This document shows, in pieces, positions 1,134-10,413 of a stretch of 64,000 nt of DNA. The notes under the pieces are model-generated. The model searched no databases. It was not told where the DNA came from and saw only the letters and a list, made by a program, of their open reading frames with translations. Each line of letters begins with the position of its first letter. Positions within the stretch are counted from its first letter, which is position 1. Origin of the DNA: Pseudomonadota bacterium. GTDB lineage: Bacteria; Myxococcota_A; UBA9042; GCA-2863065. The position numbers were made by a program, and so were the translations under genes. The DNA is taken from positions 53,425 through 117,424 of the forward strand of contig SXOX01000045.1 in NCBI GenBank assembly GCA_005776585.1, given 5' to 3'.

Positions 1134-2888
1134 CTATGCGCCCCGCTGCGTCAGGGAGCGCAGAGGCACCGTGTCGCCTCCCGCGCGGCGAATGGCTCGG
1201 ACCGCGCTCTCGGCACGCAACCGTCGCTCCGCGTCGAGGCCGGCCTCGACGGCCTCGCGCTCGTTGTCGACGCGTGGCGGAGCCTTGGTGCGCGACGTCT
1301 CGGGCGTGGCGTCAGCAAAGACGATCCGGTGTCGCTCCCCGGCTGCCACCCGAACGGCGGCTTCGATCTCGCTCGCCTCGCCCACCGAGTCCATGCGGGT
1401 CACCACGACCAGCGTCATCGGGGCCCGGAGACGAGCGCGGTCTCGCCCCTGACCCGCGTCGCGTACGGCCCGCTGAGCCGCTAGGACGAGGCCGGTCCAG
1501 CGCCGCGCGAACGGCGCCCCCAGCGCGCGAGGCAGCTCGATCCCGTGAAAACGACAGTAGGTCAGCAGCCACGCCCGCGCGGTGTCTGTCGCCGGAGCGC
1601 CCAGCACCTGCCGCCACCGCTTGATGGCCGTGGCCTGCGTCGACAGCGCGTGGCGTGCGCGTTCGGCGGTGACCTCGACGAGGAACGGGTCATCGACGCT
1701 CGCCGCGATCGGACCCGCCTGACCGTCGCTCAGCTCAGCCGAGCGTGATCCCTCGCGCTGATCCAAGTGCTCCTGCACCCACAGCGCGAGCTCGCCGTCC
1801 TCGATGGCGACATGGGGGTCGTGGACGATGGCCTCGACCTCGACGAGGTGCTCGAGGATGCGACGGCGCGTGTCGGGACCCGACGCCGCCTGCGTCGTGC
1901 CAAAGACGACGTCGCCGTAGGTCACGAGTCCCACGCGGTGGCCCTGACGTCGCGCCAGCGCCGCCTCCGCAAAGCCCGCCACGAGCGCGACGGCCGCGTC
2001 CAACGCGCGCTGCCCCGGAGCGCCTTCCCGCATCGCCTCCCCGACGTCCATCACGAAGACGACGCCATAGGTAGACTCGCCCTCGACCTCTCGCACGATG
2101 AGCTTTCCGTCGGCGCGGCGCGCGGTCGCCTTCCACGCAATCTGCTTGAACGCGTCGCCCGGGACGTGGTCACGCAGCTCGCGCAGATCCGACCCCATGC
2201 CACGCCGTGGAAGCGAGGCCGTCACGGCATCCGGACTCAGCCCGCGGGGTGCCAAGAGCGCCCAGCGAGGGCGATGGCGAGCGGAACGGGGAAGGACGAG
2301 GACCGCGAGATCGACGGGAGCCTCGAGATGCACACGGGCGCCGACGAGGGCGACCTCGAGGACGACGCGCTTGACGAAGCCGGGGCCCACGCGCAGCCCC
2401 TCGACCTCGCCGCCGAGGACGACGGTCTCCGAGCCTTCGTCGGCGTCGTCGCCAGCCTCGTCCACGCCCAGCGGTGCAGGCTCGCGGACGTGCCGCAGTC
2501 CAGCGCTCAGCTCGACCCGCACCCGCACAACCCGGGGAGCCGTGCCGTGAACGCACCAGCGGAGGGCGACTCGGAGCGGGACCCGGCCCCCGACGGGGAT
2601 CGAGCCATCTCGCGACGCGCGCGCCACGCTGACCCGGAGACCGCCCGCGAAGCGCGGTAGCGAGACGTGCCGCGCCCAGGCGAGGACGAGCGCGACCGCG
2701 GCGAGCAGGGTGGCGCCCCAGGCGATGAGGATCGGCGACGTGGCCGCCAGGCCGACCGCCGCGATGAGCGCGCCGAGGCCGAGTACGGTCTGCGCCTCGA
2801 TCCCGAGCTCGAACCGCCGAGGCGATGCGGTGACGCCCGCAGAACGGGCATCTCCAGGGGCAGAGCCAGTGGCAGCGACAAGGCTCAC
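1134..2888 (-). CDS. DUF58 (VWA-like) domain protein, MoxR partner
   Basis: 584-aa ORF. N-terminal TM helices, then LRELRDHVPGDAFKQIAWKATARR...VREVEGE...VFVMDVGEAM, typical of DUF58. Its start overlaps the MoxR stop by 4 nt. Confidence 0.8.
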   Translation of the reverse strand: MSLVAATGSAPGDARSAGVTASPRRFELGIEAQTVLGLGALIAAVGLAATSPILIAWGATLLAAVALVLAWARHVSLPRFAGGLRVSVARASRDGSIPVGGRVPLRVALRWCVHGTAPRVVRVRVELSAGLRHVREPAPLGVDEAGDDADEGSETVVLGGEVEGLRVGPGFVKRVVLEVALVGARVHLEAPVDLAVLVLPRSARHRPRWALLAPRGLSPDAVTASLPRRGMGSDLRELRDHVPGDAFKQIAWKATARRADGKLIVREVEGESTYGVVFVMDVGEAMREGAPGQRALDAAVALVAGFAEAALARRQGHRVGLVTYGDVVFGTTQAASGPDTRRRILEHLVEVEAIVHDPHVAIEDGELALWVQEHLDQREGSRSAELSDGQAGPIAASVDDPFLVEVTAERARHALSTQATAIKRWRQVLGAPATDTARAWLLTYCRFHGIELPRALGAPFARRWTGLVLAAQRAVRDAGQGRDRARLRAPMTLVVVTRMDSVGEASEIEAAVRVAAGERHRIVFADATPETSRTKAPPRVDNEREAVEAGLDAERRLRAESAVRAIRRAGGDTVPLRSLTQRGA

Positions 2889-3889
2889 GGCAGGGTTGCG
2901 TACACGGTATCCGCGACGATCTCGGCCACGACCTGAGCGACGACCGCTTCGGGTGATGGTCCATCGAGCTCCGCCTCCGGCAGGAGGCGCACGCGATGCT
3001 CCAGGACGTAACCCGCGATTGCCTGGACGTCGTCAGGGATCACGTAGCTCCGGCCCCGCAGCATGGCGTGGACCTTGGCCGAGTTCATGAGCAGCAGGCT
3101 CGCGCGTGGCGAGGCCCCGACGCGCACCCGAGGGTGCGCTCGGGTGGCCGACACCAAGCGAACGATGTACGCGATGAGCTCATCGTCGACGTAGACGCGG
3201 GCAGCAGCGTCGGCCAGCTCCATGATGGTGGGCCCCTCGATCAGCGCACGCACAGGCTCGACGGGCGCACTGTAGGTCCGCAGCAGCCGCCGCTCGTCGG
3301 TCTCGGTGGGGTAGCCGAGCGTCAGCCGGAACATGAAGCGATCGAGCTGCGCCTCGGGCAGCAAGTAGACGCCCTCGTGGTCCATGGGGTTCTGAGTGGC
3401 GAGCACCATGAACGGCGGGTCCAGCCGCTCCGTCTGCCCGTCGATGGTGACCTGTCCCTCCTGCATCGCCTCGAGCAGCGCGCTCTGGGTCTTGGCGGGC
3501 GCGCGGTTGATCTCGTCGCCCAAGATGACGTTTGCAAAGACCGGCCCTCGCCGCAGCTCGAAGCGCCGCGACTCGAGGTCCAGCACGAACGTGCCAGTGA
3601 TGTCCGCAGGCAGGAGATCCGGAGTGAACTGAATGCGGCGAAACGTGCATCCGAGCGTGGCCGCAAACGCCTTGACGAGCGTGGTCTTCGCGATGCCAGG
3701 CACGCCCTCCAGCAGGACGTGACCGCGCGCCAGGAGCGCGATGAGCAACAGCTCTACGGTGCCCGTCGGGCCAATGTAGACCCGCGAGATCTCACGAAGA
3801 ACGGCCTCTCGCAGCTCCGCGGCGCGGGCCAGAGCGGTGTCGTCGAAGGGCACGTCAGCGGCGGCGTGTCGAAGGGCTTGGGACGTCAC
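2885..3889 (-). CDS. MoxR-family AAA+ ATPase
   Basis: 334 aa. GHVLLEGVPGIAKTTLVKAFA (Walker A), FRRIQFTPDLLPADITG, VILGDEINRAPAKTQSALLEAMQE (Walker B / sensor). Confidence 0.92.
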   Translation of the reverse strand: MTSQALRHAAADVPFDDTALARAAELREAVLREISRVYIGPTGTVELLLIALLARGHVLLEGVPGIAKTTLVKAFAATLGCTFRRIQFTPDLLPADITGTFVLDLESRRFELRRGPVFANVILGDEINRAPAKTQSALLEAMQEGQVTIDGQTERLDPPFMVLATQNPMDHEGVYLLPEAQLDRFMFRLTLGYPTETDERRLLRTYSAPVEPVRALIEGPTIMELADAAARVYVDDELIAYIVRLVSATRAHPRVRVGASPRASLLLMNSAKVHAMLRGRSYVIPDDVQAIAGYVLEHRVRLLPEAELDGPSPEAVVAQVVAEIVADTVYATLP

Positions 3890-5325
3890 GGGTGCACTCC
3901 AGGAGTCGATGGGGTGGCGCTGCGCGGGCCGGGCTGACGCGCGCGACGCACATGATCGGAGACGCGCCGAACGTCGACCAGCAAGCGCTGGTAGGCGTCG
4001 TGGCCCATGGCTGCCGTCGCGCCTGGCAGGTCACGCGCCGACGCGACGGACCCACCCAGCCTATGCGACGCCTCGACGCACCTCAAGGCGGCGTCGCGGA
4101 CGGGTTCAGGTGCGTCCCTGACGCGGAGGGGCAGCGCATCGAGCGGTGCCCGATCGGTCTCGAACGCCGCGGCAGAGCCTCCACTGGCGAGGCGCGCGAG
4201 TGATTCGAGGAGGGCGCGGGCTGGGCGCGAATAGTCCGCCGAGTGGCGATCCCGAAGAAGCGCTGCCGCACGATCGAGAGGCTCGCCGCCCCACAGCCGC
4301 ACGCTGGGCCGAGCGCGCGCCTTCGGGGAGGCGAAGACGAAGAGCACCCCGAGGACGGTCACCGCGAGCGCCAGCGTCAGGGCGCGTGTCGTCCATCGCA
4401 GCACCAGCGGGATGCCGACTTGACTGTTGCCGTCCACGGCGAGCGCGTGGAGCGCGTCGACTGCGCGACCAAAGAACCGCTCGAATGACGCGACCGACGT
4501 CACTCGCGTGCCGGCGTATTGTCCGATGTGGGCGACCCCCTCGGGGATCACGATGACCCGACATGGACGCGGCGGGCACGGCTGCGCGCCGCGGCACGGG
4601 GGCTCGGCGCAGTGATACCGGAGGGCGTTGGCGACGAGCTGCTTGTCGCCGTAGGAGCGCTGCTGCATCTCGTCGATGAACAGGCTCGCGTCCGCCAGGA
4701 TGAGCGCGATGCCAGCGCCGCGGCGCACTTCGACGGCCGCGTGACGCTCCGGCTCCGAGTACGACGCGAGAGGGGTCGCAGGGCCCCCTCTCCGGCGTGC
4801 GTCACGCGCCGTGTCGATGACGAGCGCGACGGGGTGATTCAGAACGATCGACTCGACATTGTACCACAGAAACCGTTGCTCGTCGGACGTGAGCTCTCGG
4901 GGCCGCGTCAGCTCGGGGAAGGCCGGGTGCTCGCGGTGAAACCGGTCGTGTGCGACGCCCTCCGGTGAGACGCGGAGGCCCAGGGCCTCGAGCGCCGCGT
5001 CCGGTGGCGCGACGTCGACGGCCACGATGACGTCTCCGCCGTCGTCGAGGAAGTCCGTCAGCGCGTCTGCGTCGATGCGCCGCGACCCGAGAAAGAGGAG
5101 CACGGGCCGCTCGTCACCGCCGCTCGGCAGGGTGCTCCAGTCGAACCGATCCTTGCCGGGAACCAACGTCACGAGCTCCACCCGTGCCTCGGTCGCAGTG
5201 ACCCCGAGGTAGCCCAAGGCGTTCCACTGTCCGTCGCTCGCCGAGAACCACGGCTCCTCCGTCGGCGGGGGCCCGAGGAGCGTGGCGCCAATCGTCCACG
5301 AGACGAGCCACAGTCCGGACGTCAT
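3886..5325 (-). CDS. hypothetical membrane-anchored protein of the MoxR operon (occupies the slot usually held by DUF4350-type proteins)
   Basis: 479-aa ORF with an N-terminal hydrophobic segment. 4-nt overlaps with both neighbours. Family assignment rests on operon position only. Confidence 0.6.
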   Translation of the reverse strand: MTSGLWLVSWTIGATLLGPPPTEEPWFSASDGQWNALGYLGVTATEARVELVTLVPGKDRFDWSTLPSGGDERPVLLFLGSRRIDADALTDFLDDGGDVIVAVDVAPPDAALEALGLRVSPEGVAHDRFHREHPAFPELTRPRELTSDEQRFLWYNVESIVLNHPVALVIDTARDARRRGGPATPLASYSEPERHAAVEVRRGAGIALILADASLFIDEMQQRSYGDKQLVANALRYHCAEPPCRGAQPCPPRPCRVIVIPEGVAHIGQYAGTRVTSVASFERFFGRAVDALHALAVDGNSQVGIPLVLRWTTRALTLALAVTVLGVLFVFASPKARARPSVRLWGGEPLDRAAALLRDRHSADYSRPARALLESLARLASGGSAAAFETDRAPLDALPLRVRDAPEPVRDAALRCVEASHRLGGSVASARDLPGATAAMGHDAYQRLLVDVRRVSDHVRRARQPGPRSATPSTPGVHP

Positions 5326-7091
5326 TGGGCACTCGATGGCGGGTCGCGCGAGGTGTCGCTCTCGCCTGCGTCGCGGGCCAACGTATCCCGGGCCAAGGCG
5401 TCGAGGGCCGTACGCACCGCCTCGGCGTCCGGCGCGCCCGCGGCGCTCGGAGCGCCAAAGTAGAGCCGCTCGAACGCGAGCACCGTGCGTGCCGCGGCCG
5501 CGCCCGAGCGCATCGGACCCCCGGCCGACTCGAGGAGCATGGCGACCTCGCGCGGCGTTCGGGTCCCAAAACGGCGGACACGCCGTGCGTCCGAGGCGGA
5601 GCCGAGCGCAGCCAAGAGGCCGTCGAAGGCACGCGCGGCCAACACGCGCTTTGGGGTCAGGAGCACCTCGGTTGGAAGCCCCCGGACGCCGGAGAGAATG
5701 ACCGGCGCGTAGCCAGGACAGCTCAGCGCGATCGTCGGGGCGAGGAGCACGTCGCTCAGGTCGAGGGAGCCGTCATCCGCCGTGCGAGCCCATCGTTCGT
5801 CGACCCGCACGTCGACGTCCGCCAACGGCCGCCGCGTGAGCAGATCCACGAGGCGGACCCACCCAGGCGCCTGTCGTGGCTCCCCCGAACCCGCGGGGAG
5901 CGGCGGCGGGCTGGCGTTTTGCGGCACGGCCGCGCTCCGATGTGCGGTCGCCGTGGCGCGTCGCTGCCGCCGTTGCCACCGCGTCGCGAGCGCTGCAAGC
6001 AAATCGGCCACTCGGCGCCCGGCACCGCGCCGCCACGCGATCGCCGCCCCCACCAGCGCGAACGCGGCCAGTGCCGGCACTGCGTACTGCGCCAGTGGCA
6101 GCCGCGGCGGGGCAGGGACGTCGATCTCCCAAGGCGCTGACTGCGCGGCAGTCTCCCACGGTGCCAACGCATGAAACGTCGCGCGGACGGCCGCGCGCGT
6201 TGGCCCCATGCGTTCGGAGATCTCTGGCATGGACACCCGGGCGACAAAGCCGCCCCAGGCGTCGGAGATGACGTTCCCGACGAGGATGTCTTCGACCGTG
6301 AGGTCGAGCCGAAGGCCGCCACCGCCACCGGGTCCTTCCAGCCGACCGCTCACGGTGAGCCACGTGTCATCGACCTGCACCGAGTCGAGCGTTGGTCGAA
6401 CGCGGCGCATCGCGAGCACCGTCCGCGTGGCGCTGGCGCGGTTGATGACGTCCGTGCCCGGAAACACGACCTGGAGCCGATGCGGGCCGGCGGGCAAGCC
6501 AGGCAGCGCCCGAAACGTGGCCCGGCCTTCGGCATCGGTGCGCGTGAGCAGGCGCTGCTCCGGCTCTGGACCCAAGATGAGCTCCAGAGGCATTCCTGGC
6601 GCCGGCTCCGCACCGTGGCGTAGCGCGCACAGCACGCGCGGCGCTTGACCCGCTGTGACACGAGAGGGGCTGACTACGACGTCGAGGTCCAGGATCTCGC
6701 GATCGAGATGAAGCCGGGCCTCAGTCAACGCCGGACCGCGCGAGGCATCTCCCGCAAAACGCGCGCGGAGCGTCACCGCCGCGCCCGCCGGCGTCGCTTT
6801 GGCCAGCGCTTCGTGTTCGGCACCCTCGATGCGCACCCGGTAGCGGCCGGAGCGGTCGGTCGTCACAGCCTTGTCACCGACACCGGGCACCGACACGACC
6901 AGCTCTGCGGCGGAGACGGCCTGACCGTCGTCGTCTGAGAGGCGGCCGGTGAGCGCCAGCCCGTTCCACCGTGATGAGACCTCGACGTCCAGCGTCGTGC
7001 GGCTCAGCACGCGCAGCGGCACGGCAAGCGCCGTGGCTGGGACCAGCGAGGCCAACGAGACGAGGAGCATCAGAGCACAGCGCACGCCCAT
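5322..7091 (-). CDS. secreted/TM protein with carboxypeptidase-regulatory-like Ig folds and a C-terminal DUF4129-like region
   Basis: 589 aa. Signal peptide MGVRCALMLLVSLASLVPATALA. LTGRLSDDDGQAV...TTDRSGRYRVRI motif. TM segment LAQYAVPALAAFALVGAAIAW. C-terminal TPREVAMLLE. Confidence 0.6.
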   Translation of the reverse strand: MGVRCALMLLVSLASLVPATALAVPLRVLSRTTLDVEVSSRWNGLALTGRLSDDDGQAVSAAELVVSVPGVGDKAVTTDRSGRYRVRIEGAEHEALAKATPAGAAVTLRARFAGDASRGPALTEARLHLDREILDLDVVVSPSRVTAGQAPRVLCALRHGAEPAPGMPLELILGPEPEQRLLTRTDAEGRATFRALPGLPAGPHRLQVVFPGTDVINRASATRTVLAMRRVRPTLDSVQVDDTWLTVSGRLEGPGGGGGLRLDLTVEDILVGNVISDAWGGFVARVSMPEISERMGPTRAAVRATFHALAPWETAAQSAPWEIDVPAPPRLPLAQYAVPALAAFALVGAAIAWRRGAGRRVADLLAALATRWQRRQRRATATAHRSAAVPQNASPPPLPAGSGEPRQAPGWVRLVDLLTRRPLADVDVRVDERWARTADDGSLDLSDVLLAPTIALSCPGYAPVILSGVRGLPTEVLLTPKRVLAARAFDGLLAALGSASDARRVRRFGTRTPREVAMLLESAGGPMRSGAAAARTVLAFERLYFGAPSAAGAPDAEAVRTALDALARDTLARDAGESDTSRDPPSSAQ

Positions 7092-7117: not shown

Positions 7118-8500
7118 CTACGTTCGCGCGGCGGCCAGCGTGAATCGGAAGGTCGCGCCCTCTCCCGGTCGCGACTCGACCCAGATCGTCCCGCTGTGGC
7201 GCTCGACGATGCGCTTGCAGATGGCGAGGCCGAGGCCCGTGCCGGGGTACTTGGCGCGGGGGTGGAGTCTCTGAAAGATCACGAAGATGCGCTCGAAGTG
7301 CTCCGGCGCGATCCCGATGCCGTTGTCCGTGACCGAGTAGACGACGTCGTCCCCTCGCGCCTCGCCCGAAATCGTCACCACCGGGGCGCTGTCACCGTGA
7401 AACTTGAGCGCGTTGCTGAGCAGGTTCTGAAACACACGCACGAGCTCGGCCGGGTCTGCCATGACCGGGGGCAGAGGCCCGCGGCGAAGCTCAGCGTGCG
7501 TCTCGAGCACGAGCGTCTCCAGGTTGGCGACCGCGTTGTCGAGGGCCAGAGAGGCGTCCGTCGGGCGCGATGCGCCGCTCTCACGACCCACACGGGAGTA
7601 GTCCAGCAACCCGTCGATGAGCCGGTAGGCCCGCGTCACGCCCTGTACAATGGCGCCAATGTACTCGTCTGCGTCGGCGCCAAGCTGGCCCCGGTACCGC
7701 CGCGCCAAGAGCTGCGCATAACTGGAGACGACGCGCACCGGCTCCTTGAGGTCATGGCTCACCGCGTAGGCGAACTGTTCGAGCTCCGCGTTCGAGCGCG
7801 CCAGGTCCTGCTCGGCGCGTCGGCGCTCCGTGACGTCTCGAAACACGGCGAGCGCGCCAATGGGTCGACCGTCGACATCGGAGAGTGGACGCGCATTGAA
7901 GCGCAGCCACGAGCCCTCCGGTCGTCGTGCGGTACGCAGGAGCACGTCGACCTCCTCGACCGGCAGCCCGCGCAGCGCACGCACGAGCGGCAGCTCATCG
8001 CGGGGGCACGGCGTGTCTCCGTCGGCGCGAAAGGTTCCGTACGAGCCCGGATGGCGCAGATCGGCGGGGCGCTCAGCCAGCGGGTTGGTCGACAAGAAGG
8101 CGAGATGCTCGAGGCCGACGAGCCGCGTGGCCGCCGGATTACATAGGACGAGGCGCCCGTCTGGAGCGACGACGACGACGCCGTCGGTCATGCCGTCGAG
8201 CACCGCCTGGAGGATGCGCGTCTGCTCGCGGAGCGCCGCGCGGGACTGCTCGAGCTGCTCATCGCGCTTGCGCAGCGTGTCGCGTGTGACGCGCAGAAGC
8301 GTCGTCGGCGTGAGGCGATCGATCGCCGCACCGTCGGCGACCGTGACCTCGTGGTTCGGCGCCGCGCCCGCTGGCGCATCAGTCGCGCGACCGGCCTCGG
8401 CGTGCGAAGGTTCACCCGCACGACTCCGCTGCTCGCCGCGATAGGCGCTACTGCTTTGGCCGCCCTCTTGGCCGCCGTGCTGACCACGCATGCCCGTCAT
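7118..8500 (-). CDS. PAS-domain sensor histidine kinase
   Basis: H-box SHDLKEPVRVV, N-box LLSNALKF, G1 DNGIGI, G2 GTGLGLAICK, with two PAS-like segments. Start set at the ATG at 8500, preceded by GGAGGAAGA. The track ORF extends to 8599. Confidence 0.85.
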   Translation of the reverse strand: MTGMRGQHGGQEGGQSSSAYRGEQRSRAGEPSHAEAGRATDAPAGAAPNHEVTVADGAAIDRLTPTTLLRVTRDTLRKRDEQLEQSRAALREQTRILQAVLDGMTDGVVVVAPDGRLVLCNPAATRLVGLEHLAFLSTNPLAERPADLRHPGSYGTFRADGDTPCPRDELPLVRALRGLPVEEVDVLLRTARRPEGSWLRFNARPLSDVDGRPIGALAVFRDVTERRRAEQDLARSNAELEQFAYAVSHDLKEPVRVVSSYAQLLARRYRGQLGADADEYIGAIVQGVTRAYRLIDGLLDYSRVGRESGASRPTDASLALDNAVANLETLVLETHAELRRGPLPPVMADPAELVRVFQNLLSNALKFHGDSAPVVTISGEARGDDVVYSVTDNGIGIAPEHFERIFVIFQRLHPRAKYPGTGLGLAICKRIVERHSGTIWVESRPGEGATFRFTLAAART

Positions 8501-8623
8501 TCTTCCTCCGGAGCGCCCGTACTCTACTCCTTGCCGGGCCCAACGGCAACGCCCACCTTGCGCCCCCGACATCGCTGGGGCACGCTCGCCACGACCCACG
8601 AGCGGGTCCGAGAGGAGCGAAAC

Positions 8624-9052
8624 GTGTTTCTTGAGTCCATTTTCGTCGGCGCAGTCGCTGCCGCCCTGGTCATCGGAGGAGTCGTCGAGCCGCCAAGCGT
8701 GGGCGAGCCCAGCGATGACGCGCCCATCACCGCCAACTCGTGCGGTAGCATCTCGAACAACGACATGCGCTACTACTGCCAGGGGTCGTGCGGGAGCATC
8801 TCGAACAACGACATGCGCTACATGTGCCAGGGGTCGTGCGGGAGCATCTCGAACAACGACACCCGCTACTTCTGCCAGAAGTCGTGTGGGAGCATCTCGA
8901 ACAACGACCTCCGCTACTACTGCCAGGGCTCGTGCGGGAGCATCTCGTCCAATGACTTGCGGTACCTGTGTCAGGGCAGTTGCGGGAGCATCTCGAACAA
9001 CGATCTCCGCTACTTCTGTAGCTCAGGAAAGAAGTATCCGTTCGGCAGCTGA
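8624..9052 (+). CDS. small membrane-anchored protein with six tandem 16-aa Cys-containing repeats (CGSISNNDxRYxCQGS)
   Basis: GTG at 8624 preceded by GAGAGGAGCGAAAC, in frame with track ORF 8351..9052. N-terminal hydrophobic helix FVGAVAAALVIGGVV, then the repeats. Confidence 0.6.
   Translation: MFLESIFVGAVAAALVIGGVVEPPSVGEPSDDAPITANSCGSISNNDMRYYCQGSCGSISNNDMRYMCQGSCGSISNNDTRYFCQKSCGSISNNDLRYYCQGSCGSISSNDLRYLCQGSCGSISNNDLRYFCSSGKKYPFGS
8741..9028 (+). repeat. 6 x 48-bp in-frame tandem repeat
   Basis: Read directly: tgcgg(t/g)agcatctcgaacaacgac...cgctac...tgccagg(g/c)(g/c)tcg repeated six times head to tail. Substitutions are concentrated at codons 9 and 12 of each unit. Confidence 0.9.
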
Positions 9053-9094: not shown

Positions 9095-10168
9095 CTAACG
9101 CACGGTGCGGAGGTCGACCAGCGCCCGCTCACCGGCACGCCACACAGCGGCCTGACGCGCGCCCCGCCGCCAGGCGCGACGGAACGCAAACGACGTCTGG
9201 GTCGGCCAGGCGCCGCTGCCATCGGGCCGACGGAGCGCCTCGACCCACGTTTCCTGTACGGTTGGTGGGCCCGCGCTCATCACCACGCGCACCCCCAACG
9301 GCGTCGAGCGCAGCGCTCTCAAGTCGCGCAGCGTGAGATCCGGCTCCGACGCGCGCATGACCGCGTACGTGAACGCGTCATGCTCCAGCGTGTCGAGCCC
9401 CTTGAGCCGGCGCTCGAGTGCGGCGGCGACGTCCGTGCCCTCCAACGCCAGGCGGGGGTTTTCACGCACCTGTGGCGCGGTCTCGGCGCCCTCTTGAAGC
9501 AGCGGTGGGGCACAGAATGCGATTGCGTCGCGGGCTAGCAGGACGTCCAACAGTCGACCGGTCGCTTCCGTGATCGCGGCGGAGATCTGAGGTCGCGGAT
9601 CGCTCTCGGGGACGTCGACGAAGCGGTCCTCGGGCAGCTCGAGCTCATAGCGCGCGATGATCGCGTCGGTGGCCGGATGCACGAGCCGCACGGTCAGCTG
9701 GACGTCGGAGCGGTACTCCCGATGAAGTCGCAGCTCGGCCTTGCGCGTGGCCTCGACGACCTGGCCCGTGGCACCCTCCATCGCCTGGATCTCCAGGACC
9801 GCGACCTTCTTCGGGTCGATGCCGAGCTCCCGGGCGCGCCGCAGCAGCGTCGTCCGCGTCGCGTAGCCGCCCGGTGTCGTCGGGCGCGTGACCGCGTCGA
9901 ACTCCCATGGCGCCACCGCATCGACGGCGGGCCGCTGCTCGACGACCCGTAGGACGTCGCGCGCTCGCTGCCACCGATGCCACGGCTCGACGCCCAGGAG
10001 CGTGACCTCGGGTTCGGCGACCGCGATCGCCTCAAGCTCGAGCGCGGGGCCCGCCTTGCCCGCCGTGCGCATCACCGTCATCCCCGGCGGAAGCGCGCAG
10101 GCCGTCATCCCGAACAACAGCACCCACGCGCAGGAACGGCTTGACATCGCAGCGCGCGACCCTATCAT
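9095..10168 (-). CDS. hypothetical lipoprotein
   Basis: 357-aa ORF with signal/lipobox-like [17 protein letters not shown]. An alternative start at 10147 is possible. Confidence 0.6.
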
Positions 10169-10194
10169 GCGCGCCGCTCTTGCGGGAGGTGTCC

Positions 10195-10413
10195 ATGGCC
10201 CGAGTTACCGTTGAAGATTGTCTCGATCACTGTGAGAACCGGTTCGCGCTCGTCATCCTGGCGACGCGTCGCGCGCGTCAGCTCATGACGGGTGACGACT
10301 CGACCGTCTCGTCCAAGAACAAGCCGGCCGTCACGGCGCTGCGCGAGATCGCCAATGGCTCGGTCGGCTTCGACCGCTCCGTCATCGACCTGCTTCGCGA
10401 CGGTATCCGCTGA
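10195..10413 (+). CDS. rpoZ: DNA-directed RNA polymerase subunit omega
   Basis: [34 protein letters not shown] at 10195 preceded by GGGAGG. The track ORF starts further upstream at a TTG. Confidence 0.9.

Follow-up and report, generated by a model that had tools for sequence, protein, structure and literature searches.

A small gene on the forward strand of the window, by which we mean the whole 64,000-nt stretch of DNA analysed here, encodes a protein with an N-terminal export signal and six 16-residue cysteine units, and this protein belongs to a family of exported repeat proteins that database models do not describe. In our view, six disulfide-stapled loops probably make up a compact domain that is exported and may be tethered; a structural or binding role is our default assumption for it.

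The gene, its reading frame and the repeat array

The gene spans 8624–9052 (+) and specifies a 142-aa product, from GTG 8624 to a TGA stop at 9050–9052, in which a hydrophobic N-terminus is followed by a Pro/acidic linker, six 16-aa units (CGSISNNDxRYxCQGS) and a short tail, KKYPFGS (Table 1). A Shine-Dalgarno sequence (AGGAG, 8613–8617) lies 6 nt ahead of the GTG, and an alternative in-frame TTG at 8558 has none. An earlier, sequence-only reading of this DNA had proposed the same start with a good SD, the same approximate length and the same N-terminal layout, and all of these stand: the hydrophobic segment and the linker occupy residues 1–21 and 22–39 of the translation as described, and GTG 8624 is supported because relatives such as P0007, L009, L019 and L020 likewise open straight at their hydrophobic segment and because the window's subgroup begins with such a segment at residue 1.

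Table 1. Features of the repeat gene and its immediate surroundings in the window
Feature	Position	Strand	Basis
Soluble PAS histidine kinase (PAS_4, HisKA, HATPase_c), divergent	7118–8500	−	Pfam; absent beside homologs
Divergent spacer, 123 bp, from kinase start to repeat gene, contains AGGAG	8501–8623		Sequence
CDS of the 142-aa repeat protein	8624–9052	+	Translation, GC3, orthologs
Hydrophobic export signal, residues 1–21, MFLESIFVGAVAAALVIGGVV, cleaved or signal anchor	8624–8686	+	Translation; relatives' signals
Pro/acidic linker, residues 22–39, EPPSVGEPSDDAPITANS	8687–8740	+	Translation
Six 48-bp units, residues 40–135, C1-G-S-I-S-N-N-D8-x-R10-Y-x-C13-Q-G-S	8741–9028	+	Tandem Repeats Finder; ungapped ortholog alignment; Cys1/Cys13 covariation
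C-terminal tail motif S-G-K-K-Y-P-F-G-S	9023–9049	+	Kept in all type a relatives
Convergent ORF, up to 357 aa, lipobox-like internal GMTAC, no family match, not a conserved partner	9095–10168	−	

The repeat gene is a genuine protein-coding gene. GC at codon positions 1/2/3 of the array is 0.32/0.52/0.91 in the called frame (window GC, 68.6%), the third-position value of 0.91 being confined to that frame and its mirror (GC3 is 0.86 over the whole ORF), and comparison with L008, the closest ortholog at 73% protein identity, gives a pN of 0.13 and a pS of 0.92; the in-frame GC3 and this strong purifying selection against orthologs together show that 8624–9052 is coding. Several overlapping frames are open across the array in DNA of this GC content, as they would be if it were a non-coding tandem repeat open by chance in a GC-rich genome, a reading to which we give virtually no credence. 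The further open frames are the usual high-GC artefacts, and homolog searches and substitution analysis have already refuted a non-coding repeat, with the codon signal limited to the called frame and its mirror, the peptide conserved despite saturated synonymous sites and dozens of homologs bearing signal peptides. Codon usage favouring another frame and homologs with a non-coding repeat region were two outcomes that the earlier reading had named as telling against the gene, and the opposite was found for both.

Every relative carries a signal peptide or a lipobox at its N-terminus, as judged by eye and regex. In about 40% of the tailed members the hydrophobic stretch is short and closes in a lipobox (LLAC, LGAC, ATAC); the remaining members carry conventional AxA-terminated signal peptides or, in the window's subgroup, a short, uncharged hydrophobic segment from residue 1. 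We take the window protein to be exported as well, with an N-terminus that could equally be cleaved (for example after VIGG) or retained as an anchor; of the label 'membrane-anchored' given to it earlier, the N-terminal export or anchor segment stands, and for the anchoring itself a cleaved signal peptide is an equally possible reading.

Tandem Repeats Finder reports a 48-bp period in 5.9 copies at 8738–9018 (82% matches, score 366) together with an additional 144-bp super-period (86% matches), and the 48-bp periodicity is far beyond chance. From 8741 the units read CGSISNNDMRYYCQGS / ..MRYMCQGS / ..TRYFCQKS / ..LRYYCQGS / CGSISSNDLRYLCQGS / ..LRYFCSSG. The six 16-aa Cys units recognised by the earlier reading are confirmed by sequence, translation and Tandem Repeats Finder alike, and the C-x11-C-x3-C spacing is, as it had stated, invariant inside the window gene. 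Most of the within-gene differences do fall at unit positions 9 and 12, the two positions that it had singled out as variable, with other changes at position 6 (unit 5), at position 15 (unit 3) and in the divergent end of unit 6, but neither position shows diversifying hypervariability; across the family the residues there are hydrophobic (L/M/I/V/T at 9 and Y/L/F at 12), and their pattern is partly kept unit by unit between orthologs. The suggestion of concerted evolution also holds in part. Units 1–4 share 85–92% DNA identity, compared with 65–77% for same-position units between orthologs, and some recent homogenisation or duplication of these four units seems likely from the sequences; units 5 and 6, however, are only ~70% identical to the rest, and the strong codon bias (GC3 0.91) inflates the DNA similarity of units. 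Within L008 the units have a pN of 0.10 and only 39% of third positions in common, so that synonymous sites are saturated and the peptide is kept. As these units differ at nearly all synonymous sites, selection on the peptide, and not homogenisation alone, keeps the units alike.

Extent and architecture of the family

The best Pfam-A match to the window protein scores 13.9 bits against a cut-off of 25, its NCBIfam matches are noise, neither library gives anything above cut-off or a consistent family for 20 relatives, and a profile search of all PDB sequences returned chance matches only (E ≥ 0.6). In a set of 5.8 billion proteins, 28 clusters were recovered by single sequence and 61 by profile; their members are 57–239 aa long, nearly all are metagenome singletons, and where names are given these read 'hypothetical protein'. 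An exhaustive search of 1.84 billion representatives yielded 146 at E ≤ 1e-3 and 61 at E ≤ 1e-10, and the best E-values to relatives reach 4e-51. The long proteins among the 146 (P0033, P0040, P0043, P0058, P0065, P0072, P0082, P0084, P0090 and P0103) were set aside after inspection as unrelated low-complexity or other 16-residue repeats. P0072 and P0090 are phage-tail-fibre-like, with a Cys-free 16-residue repeat (SGSNISxFxNDxxYxx) that matches at E about 1e-8 to 1e-11; we judged this likeness compositional, curious as the shared period and the G-S-x-I-S..N-D..Y skeleton are. On the sequences recovered, the family is a rare one, with about 60–150 sequence clusters, and is without a curated description.

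Within the window's phylum the family is carried by 26 of 401 genomes, in a single copy each, and by 20 of 255 genera; the window's own assembly has one copy and one distant cousin. Relatives in named genome records come from MAGs with the labels Myxococcales, Polyangia, Deltaproteobacteria or 'proteobacterium' and from one Spirochaetales MAG, and the habitats of these MAGs are lakes, a tropical river and activated sludge. Also in the window's genome, outside the window (L007 1474–2190 (−), that is, G000:C123), we observed a 238-aa lipoprotein with lipobox LLAC in which a Somatomedin_B domain (E 1e-8) precedes five or six units of 16 aa, of the form DCKGIAxxDKSYCxxx and spaced C-x10-C-x4-C; it adjoins L007 2195–3091, whose product has a copper type II monooxygenase C-terminal domain. 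This lipoprotein, a distant cousin of the window's units (hhalign probability 84%, E 7e-6), resembles the family in its 16-residue period, in a Cys...I...D...[KR]..Y.C skeleton and in lipoprotein export, and differs from it in the cysteine spacing, in the appending of its units to Somatomedin_B and in the lack of a GKKYP tail.

The unit consensus, drawn from ~270 units, is C-[GS]-[SFAL]-I-x-[ND]-x-D-[LM]-[RK]-[YN]-[YLF]-C-x-x-x, in which Cys1, Ile4, Asp8, Arg/Lys10 and Cys13 are near-invariant, whereas positions 5–7 and 14–16 differ between subfamilies and are uniform inside one protein. In the type a architecture, which includes the window protein, whole units are followed by a tail, S-G-[RK]-[KR]-[YFW]-P-[GF]-x-x, whose motif is conserved in all type a relatives; the linker varies among relatives in both length and sequence. 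The window protein has the features by which we delimited the family, namely an export signal, at least two units in the 16-residue register and the G-[RK]-[KR]-[YFW]-P tail (type a).

Six units are the preferred number. The tailed members comprise 21 with six units, 16 with four and 8 with two, three or five, and family members from genome bins nearly all have six. The window protein aligns ungapped to 11 six-unit relatives at 45–84% identity, and the resulting alignment of 12 proteins, with the window protein as reference, has unit-specific features: unit 4 always reads D-L-R/K-Y-Y/F-C, and units 3 and 5 lose Cys. On the ungapped alignment and these features, the array behaves as one domain of defined size and is not freely expanding. 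The count is not obligatory, since members with two to five units exist, although some of these lower counts may be due to short-read assembly collapse. At two syntenic loci of related lake MAGs we found two units (L016 6061–6198) and six units (L010 6061–6390), a difference that reflects either a genuine contraction or the collapse of a highly homogenised 96-bp super-repeat in short-read assembly.

A second architecture, type b, starts in mid-unit (..S-x-N-D-L-R-Y-x-C) after a basic helix-like segment and stops exactly at C-G-[SA]-I. In P0013, P0018, P0019, P0025, P0158 and L015, a conserved basic K-[KR]-[KR]-x-A-x-A-A-A-R-x-R precedes the first half-unit. The two end fragments (positions ~5–16 at the N-terminus and 1–4 at the C-terminus) sum to one unit, and the total comes to six in P0003, P0030, P0035, P0036, P0039, P0041, L013, L035 and L036 and to four or three elsewhere. 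By this layout type b is a circular permutation of type a. Larger metagenome lipoproteins of 292–404 aa (P0056, P0071 and P0073) have a duplicated uncharacterised N-terminal domain (..VNxSGxExCxLxVSP..WGxDxLG..) and a C-terminal array of type b units, and the stapled units are therefore used as an add-on module as well.

Cysteine pairing and candidate folds

Cys1 and Cys13 are kept or lost together. Across family members, 271 units have both and 29 have neither, with one Cys only in 7 units, five of which belong to the spurious eukaryotic P0043; the association has a Fisher p of 1e-33, calculated over sequences that are non-independent. The commonest replacement is Y/G, Tyr and Gly being a classic large-for-small compensating pair, and the others are N/A, A/A, T/G, T/A, H/G and S/V; as these pairs differ between lineages, paired loss happened several times. 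Counted from the C-terminal end, cysteines are missing from the second and fourth units, which in a six-unit protein are units 5 and 3, and the first and last units are never affected. In distant relatives C-x11-C is kept while the spacer between units grows from 3 to 8 residues (P0029, P0166, P0117) or to more than 20 (P0068). Because both Cys vanish together and C-x11-C outlasts linker growth, the pattern points to one intra-unit disulfide, Cys1–Cys13, per unit and suggests that a stapled 13-residue loop is the basic building block of the family. Among the roles floated by the sequence-only reading, a repeated disulfide ectodomain is thus the one that the relatives support. The ends of type b proteins, which begin with a lone Cys13 and end with a lone Cys1, would fit a C13-x3-C1′ pairing better, unless the two ends meet.

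The other two roles floated at that stage, metal binding and a multi-core peptide precursor, are not supported on comparison with the relatives. A periplasmic thiol-based metal chelator or redox buffer, like metallothioneins or copper-buffering peptides, would hold its 12 Cys in junction C-x3-C pairs that coordinate Cu, Zn or Cd or switch between the thiol and disulfide states, in line with the cysteine content (12 of 103 residues after the linker), with the C-x3-C invariant in the window gene, with the permuted relatives, whose start at Cys13 and end at Cys1 place every Cys in a C-x3-C pair, and with the sub-threshold Pfam match noted above, which is to yeast metallothionein (Metallothio_yeast, E 0.085). 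We nevertheless consider such a chelator improbable: Cys1 and Cys13 of a unit vanish jointly (Y/G, N/A, S/V), which breaks two C-x3-C motifs at once, their replacements are non-ligand residues, typically Tyr/Gly and never His apart from the H/G pair listed above, distant relatives keep C-x11-C and not C-x3-C, and no metal-resistance or copper-handling genes lie near any of the 24 loci. The Cys pattern therefore speaks against the junction C-x3-C as a functional element and hence against metal chelation. Less probable still is a multi-core precursor of ribosomally made peptides, in which each 16-residue unit would be a core, perhaps Cys-modified, that is excised, so that one precursor would yield a small cyclic peptide in several copies. 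Near-identical units in a small gene would suit such a precursor, and a disulfide-closed 13-mer is a plausible hairpin peptide, but no radical SAM, YcaO, MNIO/DUF692 or lanthipeptide enzyme, dedicated protease or ABC exporter is present within ~8 kb in the window, the 23 other loci have neither a maturase nor a conserved neighbour, and cleavage sites between units are not conserved. Sec or lipoprotein signals (judged by eye and regex) stand where a leader would be, many relatives being lipoproteins with a lipobox, and the conserved unit number and unit-specific differences favour one folded domain. To our knowledge, exported Cys-rich peptide precursors that MNIO (DUF692) enzymes modify, such as bufferins and oxazolins, always lie beside the MNIO enzyme and a partner; they too are small and combine a Sec signal with repeated Cys motifs, whereas the window and the 23 other loci are without MNIO and the Cys of the window family are lost in pairs, like structural disulfides.

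AlphaFold2 was run twice, with 18 sequences for the full-length protein and with the 12 ungapped six-unit sequences for the mature domain, and gave low-confidence models (pLDDT 52 and 56, pTM 0.35 and 0.46), both of which have short strands every 16 residues and a beta-solenoid-like look. Foldseek found no significant match in the PDB for a low-confidence model (best E-value 0.9), and its returns, all insignificant, were beta-helix proteins only (ice-binding proteins, bactofilin with a TM of 0.51, pectate lyase, autotransporter passengers), which show only what the weak model looks like. The unit pattern could equally fit a strand-turn-short-helix, with Asp8 as a possible helix cap, hydrophobic positions 9/12/13 and Gly15. 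An open-ended beta-solenoid rod with one disulfide-stapled 16-residue coil per unit is one specific fold that the stapled-loop domain could take, and we find it rather unlikely; such a rod would bind a periodic surface (polysaccharide, mineral, ice) or form head-to-tail polymers. It agrees with the strict 16-residue period of the strands in both models, with the exclusively beta-helical Foldseek returns and with the distant cousin in the window's genome, which keeps the 16-residue period though its Cys spacing is shifted by one. Models at these pLDDT and pTM values and a best E-value of 0.9 carry little weight, however; the outward-facing residues are unconserved family-wide (S/F/A/L at position 3, S/R/G/T at position 5), relatives with 19–35-residue spacing retain the stapled loop, and an open rod leaves both the six-unit preference and the permuted lone-Cys relatives unexplained. 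The sampled habitats, with activated sludge and tropical lakes and rivers among them, and the lack of conservation at surface positions make ice binding unlikely, and we rejected it.

Several known repeat proteins bear comparison with the window protein. The Tenebrio molitor AFP is beta-helical with 12-residue TCTxSxxCxxAx coils, and the spruce budworm AFP has 15-residue coils. Like the window protein, these insect AFPs are small and secreted, with very short near-identical tandem units and about one disulfide per unit, and the low-confidence models of the window protein also appear as stacked coils; unlike them, the window family is bacterial, comes from non-cold habitats and has no conserved Thr/Ser face, and it shares with them neither sequence similarity nor unit length and motif. 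The Helicobacter cysteine-rich proteins HcpA/B/C consist of Sel1-like repeats, ~36-residue helix pairs with one intra-repeat disulfide each, and are likewise exported bacterial repeat proteins in which every repeat is pinned by a disulfide, but no Sel1 or other Pfam model matches the window protein or 20 relatives. The Myxococcus cysteine-rich repeat TIGR02232 is longer than the window unit and has more Cys per unit. It is similarly a Cys-rich tandem repeat of exported Myxococcota proteins, and the NCBIfam search gave no match between it and the window protein at E ≤ 1. This repeat occurs in the TraA receptor (PMC3325183, PMC6372800), and a full-text literature search returned only this unrelated TraA repeat.

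If pairing is intra-unit, each type b protein has one lone Cys per end, and such a lone Cys would be expected to pair in an oxidising compartment, so that either the ends meet or molecules join head to tail. We tentatively raise the possibility, which we hold with some doubt, that the two ends of the six-unit array meet, in a small ring with pseudo-symmetry or in a compact domain, rather than lying apart in an open rod. The two unpaired Cys of type b could then provide a 'velcro' disulfide that locks the ring, or else could link head-to-tail covalent filaments. A ring, if true, would be a new ~100-residue mini-fold of 16-residue stapled loops with circular permutation visible in nature.

Genomic neighbourhood and proposed role

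The repeat gene is a stand-alone unit. The divergent histidine kinase most likely starts at ATG 8500, with GGAGG ahead of the ATG, which matches the 123-bp intergenic region described by the earlier reading. Co-regulation of the two genes, which that reading had suggested, we rejected: the pairing is unique to the window's genome, no relative adjoins a kinase or any common neighbour, and the kinase is without a membrane segment. A consensus scan at the locus of the repeat gene found no sigma-70-like promoter and no terminator. Upstream, the window has an operon-like run at 1134–7091 (−) of DUF58/VWA, MoxR-type AAA ATPase, DUF4350 and 589-aa CarboxypepD_reg protein genes, which resembles a MoxR–VWA envelope system; the other neighbours are rpoZ, two unclassified ORFs, an EpmA-like tRNA-synthetase paralog and EF-P. 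The longest form of the convergent ORF at 9095–10168 (−) overlaps the start of rpoZ (10141–10413, +) by 28 bp, which makes a more internal start for this ORF probable. No peptide-maturation enzyme, dedicated protease, exporter or metal-handling gene is among the window neighbours, and in all-against-all BLAST of the flanking ORFs, covering 13 and then 24 loci, no neighbour was common to at least three loci, the sole recurrent matches being overlapping-frame ghosts of the repeat gene. On one 98-kb contig the repeat gene sits between the genes for citrate synthase and 2-oxoglutarate dehydrogenase.

Taking the domain of six stapled loops as the preferred reading, we envisage that the Sec pathway exports the protein by means of its N-terminal hydrophobic segment and that, in the oxidising periplasm, the Cys1–Cys13 disulfide would shut each unit, leaving six stapled loops of 13 residues with 3-residue linkers between them. 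These loops would pack into a compact, rigid domain of fixed, six-unit size, followed by the conserved basic/aromatic tail GKKYPF, and the domain would display the invariant Asp8, Arg10 and Tyr11 side chains at regular intervals. It would be either free or tethered, in the window protein through the uncleaved helix and in many relatives through a lipid, and would most likely serve as a module with a structural or ligand-binding role in the periplasm or at the cell surface.

The family is a good small target (~11 kDa) for structure determination and for stapled-repeat protein design, because it combines a 16-residue unit with near-perfect Cys covariation that predicts the disulfide map, a preferred count of six and a natural circular permutation. 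Exported disulfide-stapled mini-repeat proteins are a recurring and poorly charted feature of Myxococcota and other uncultured bacteria.
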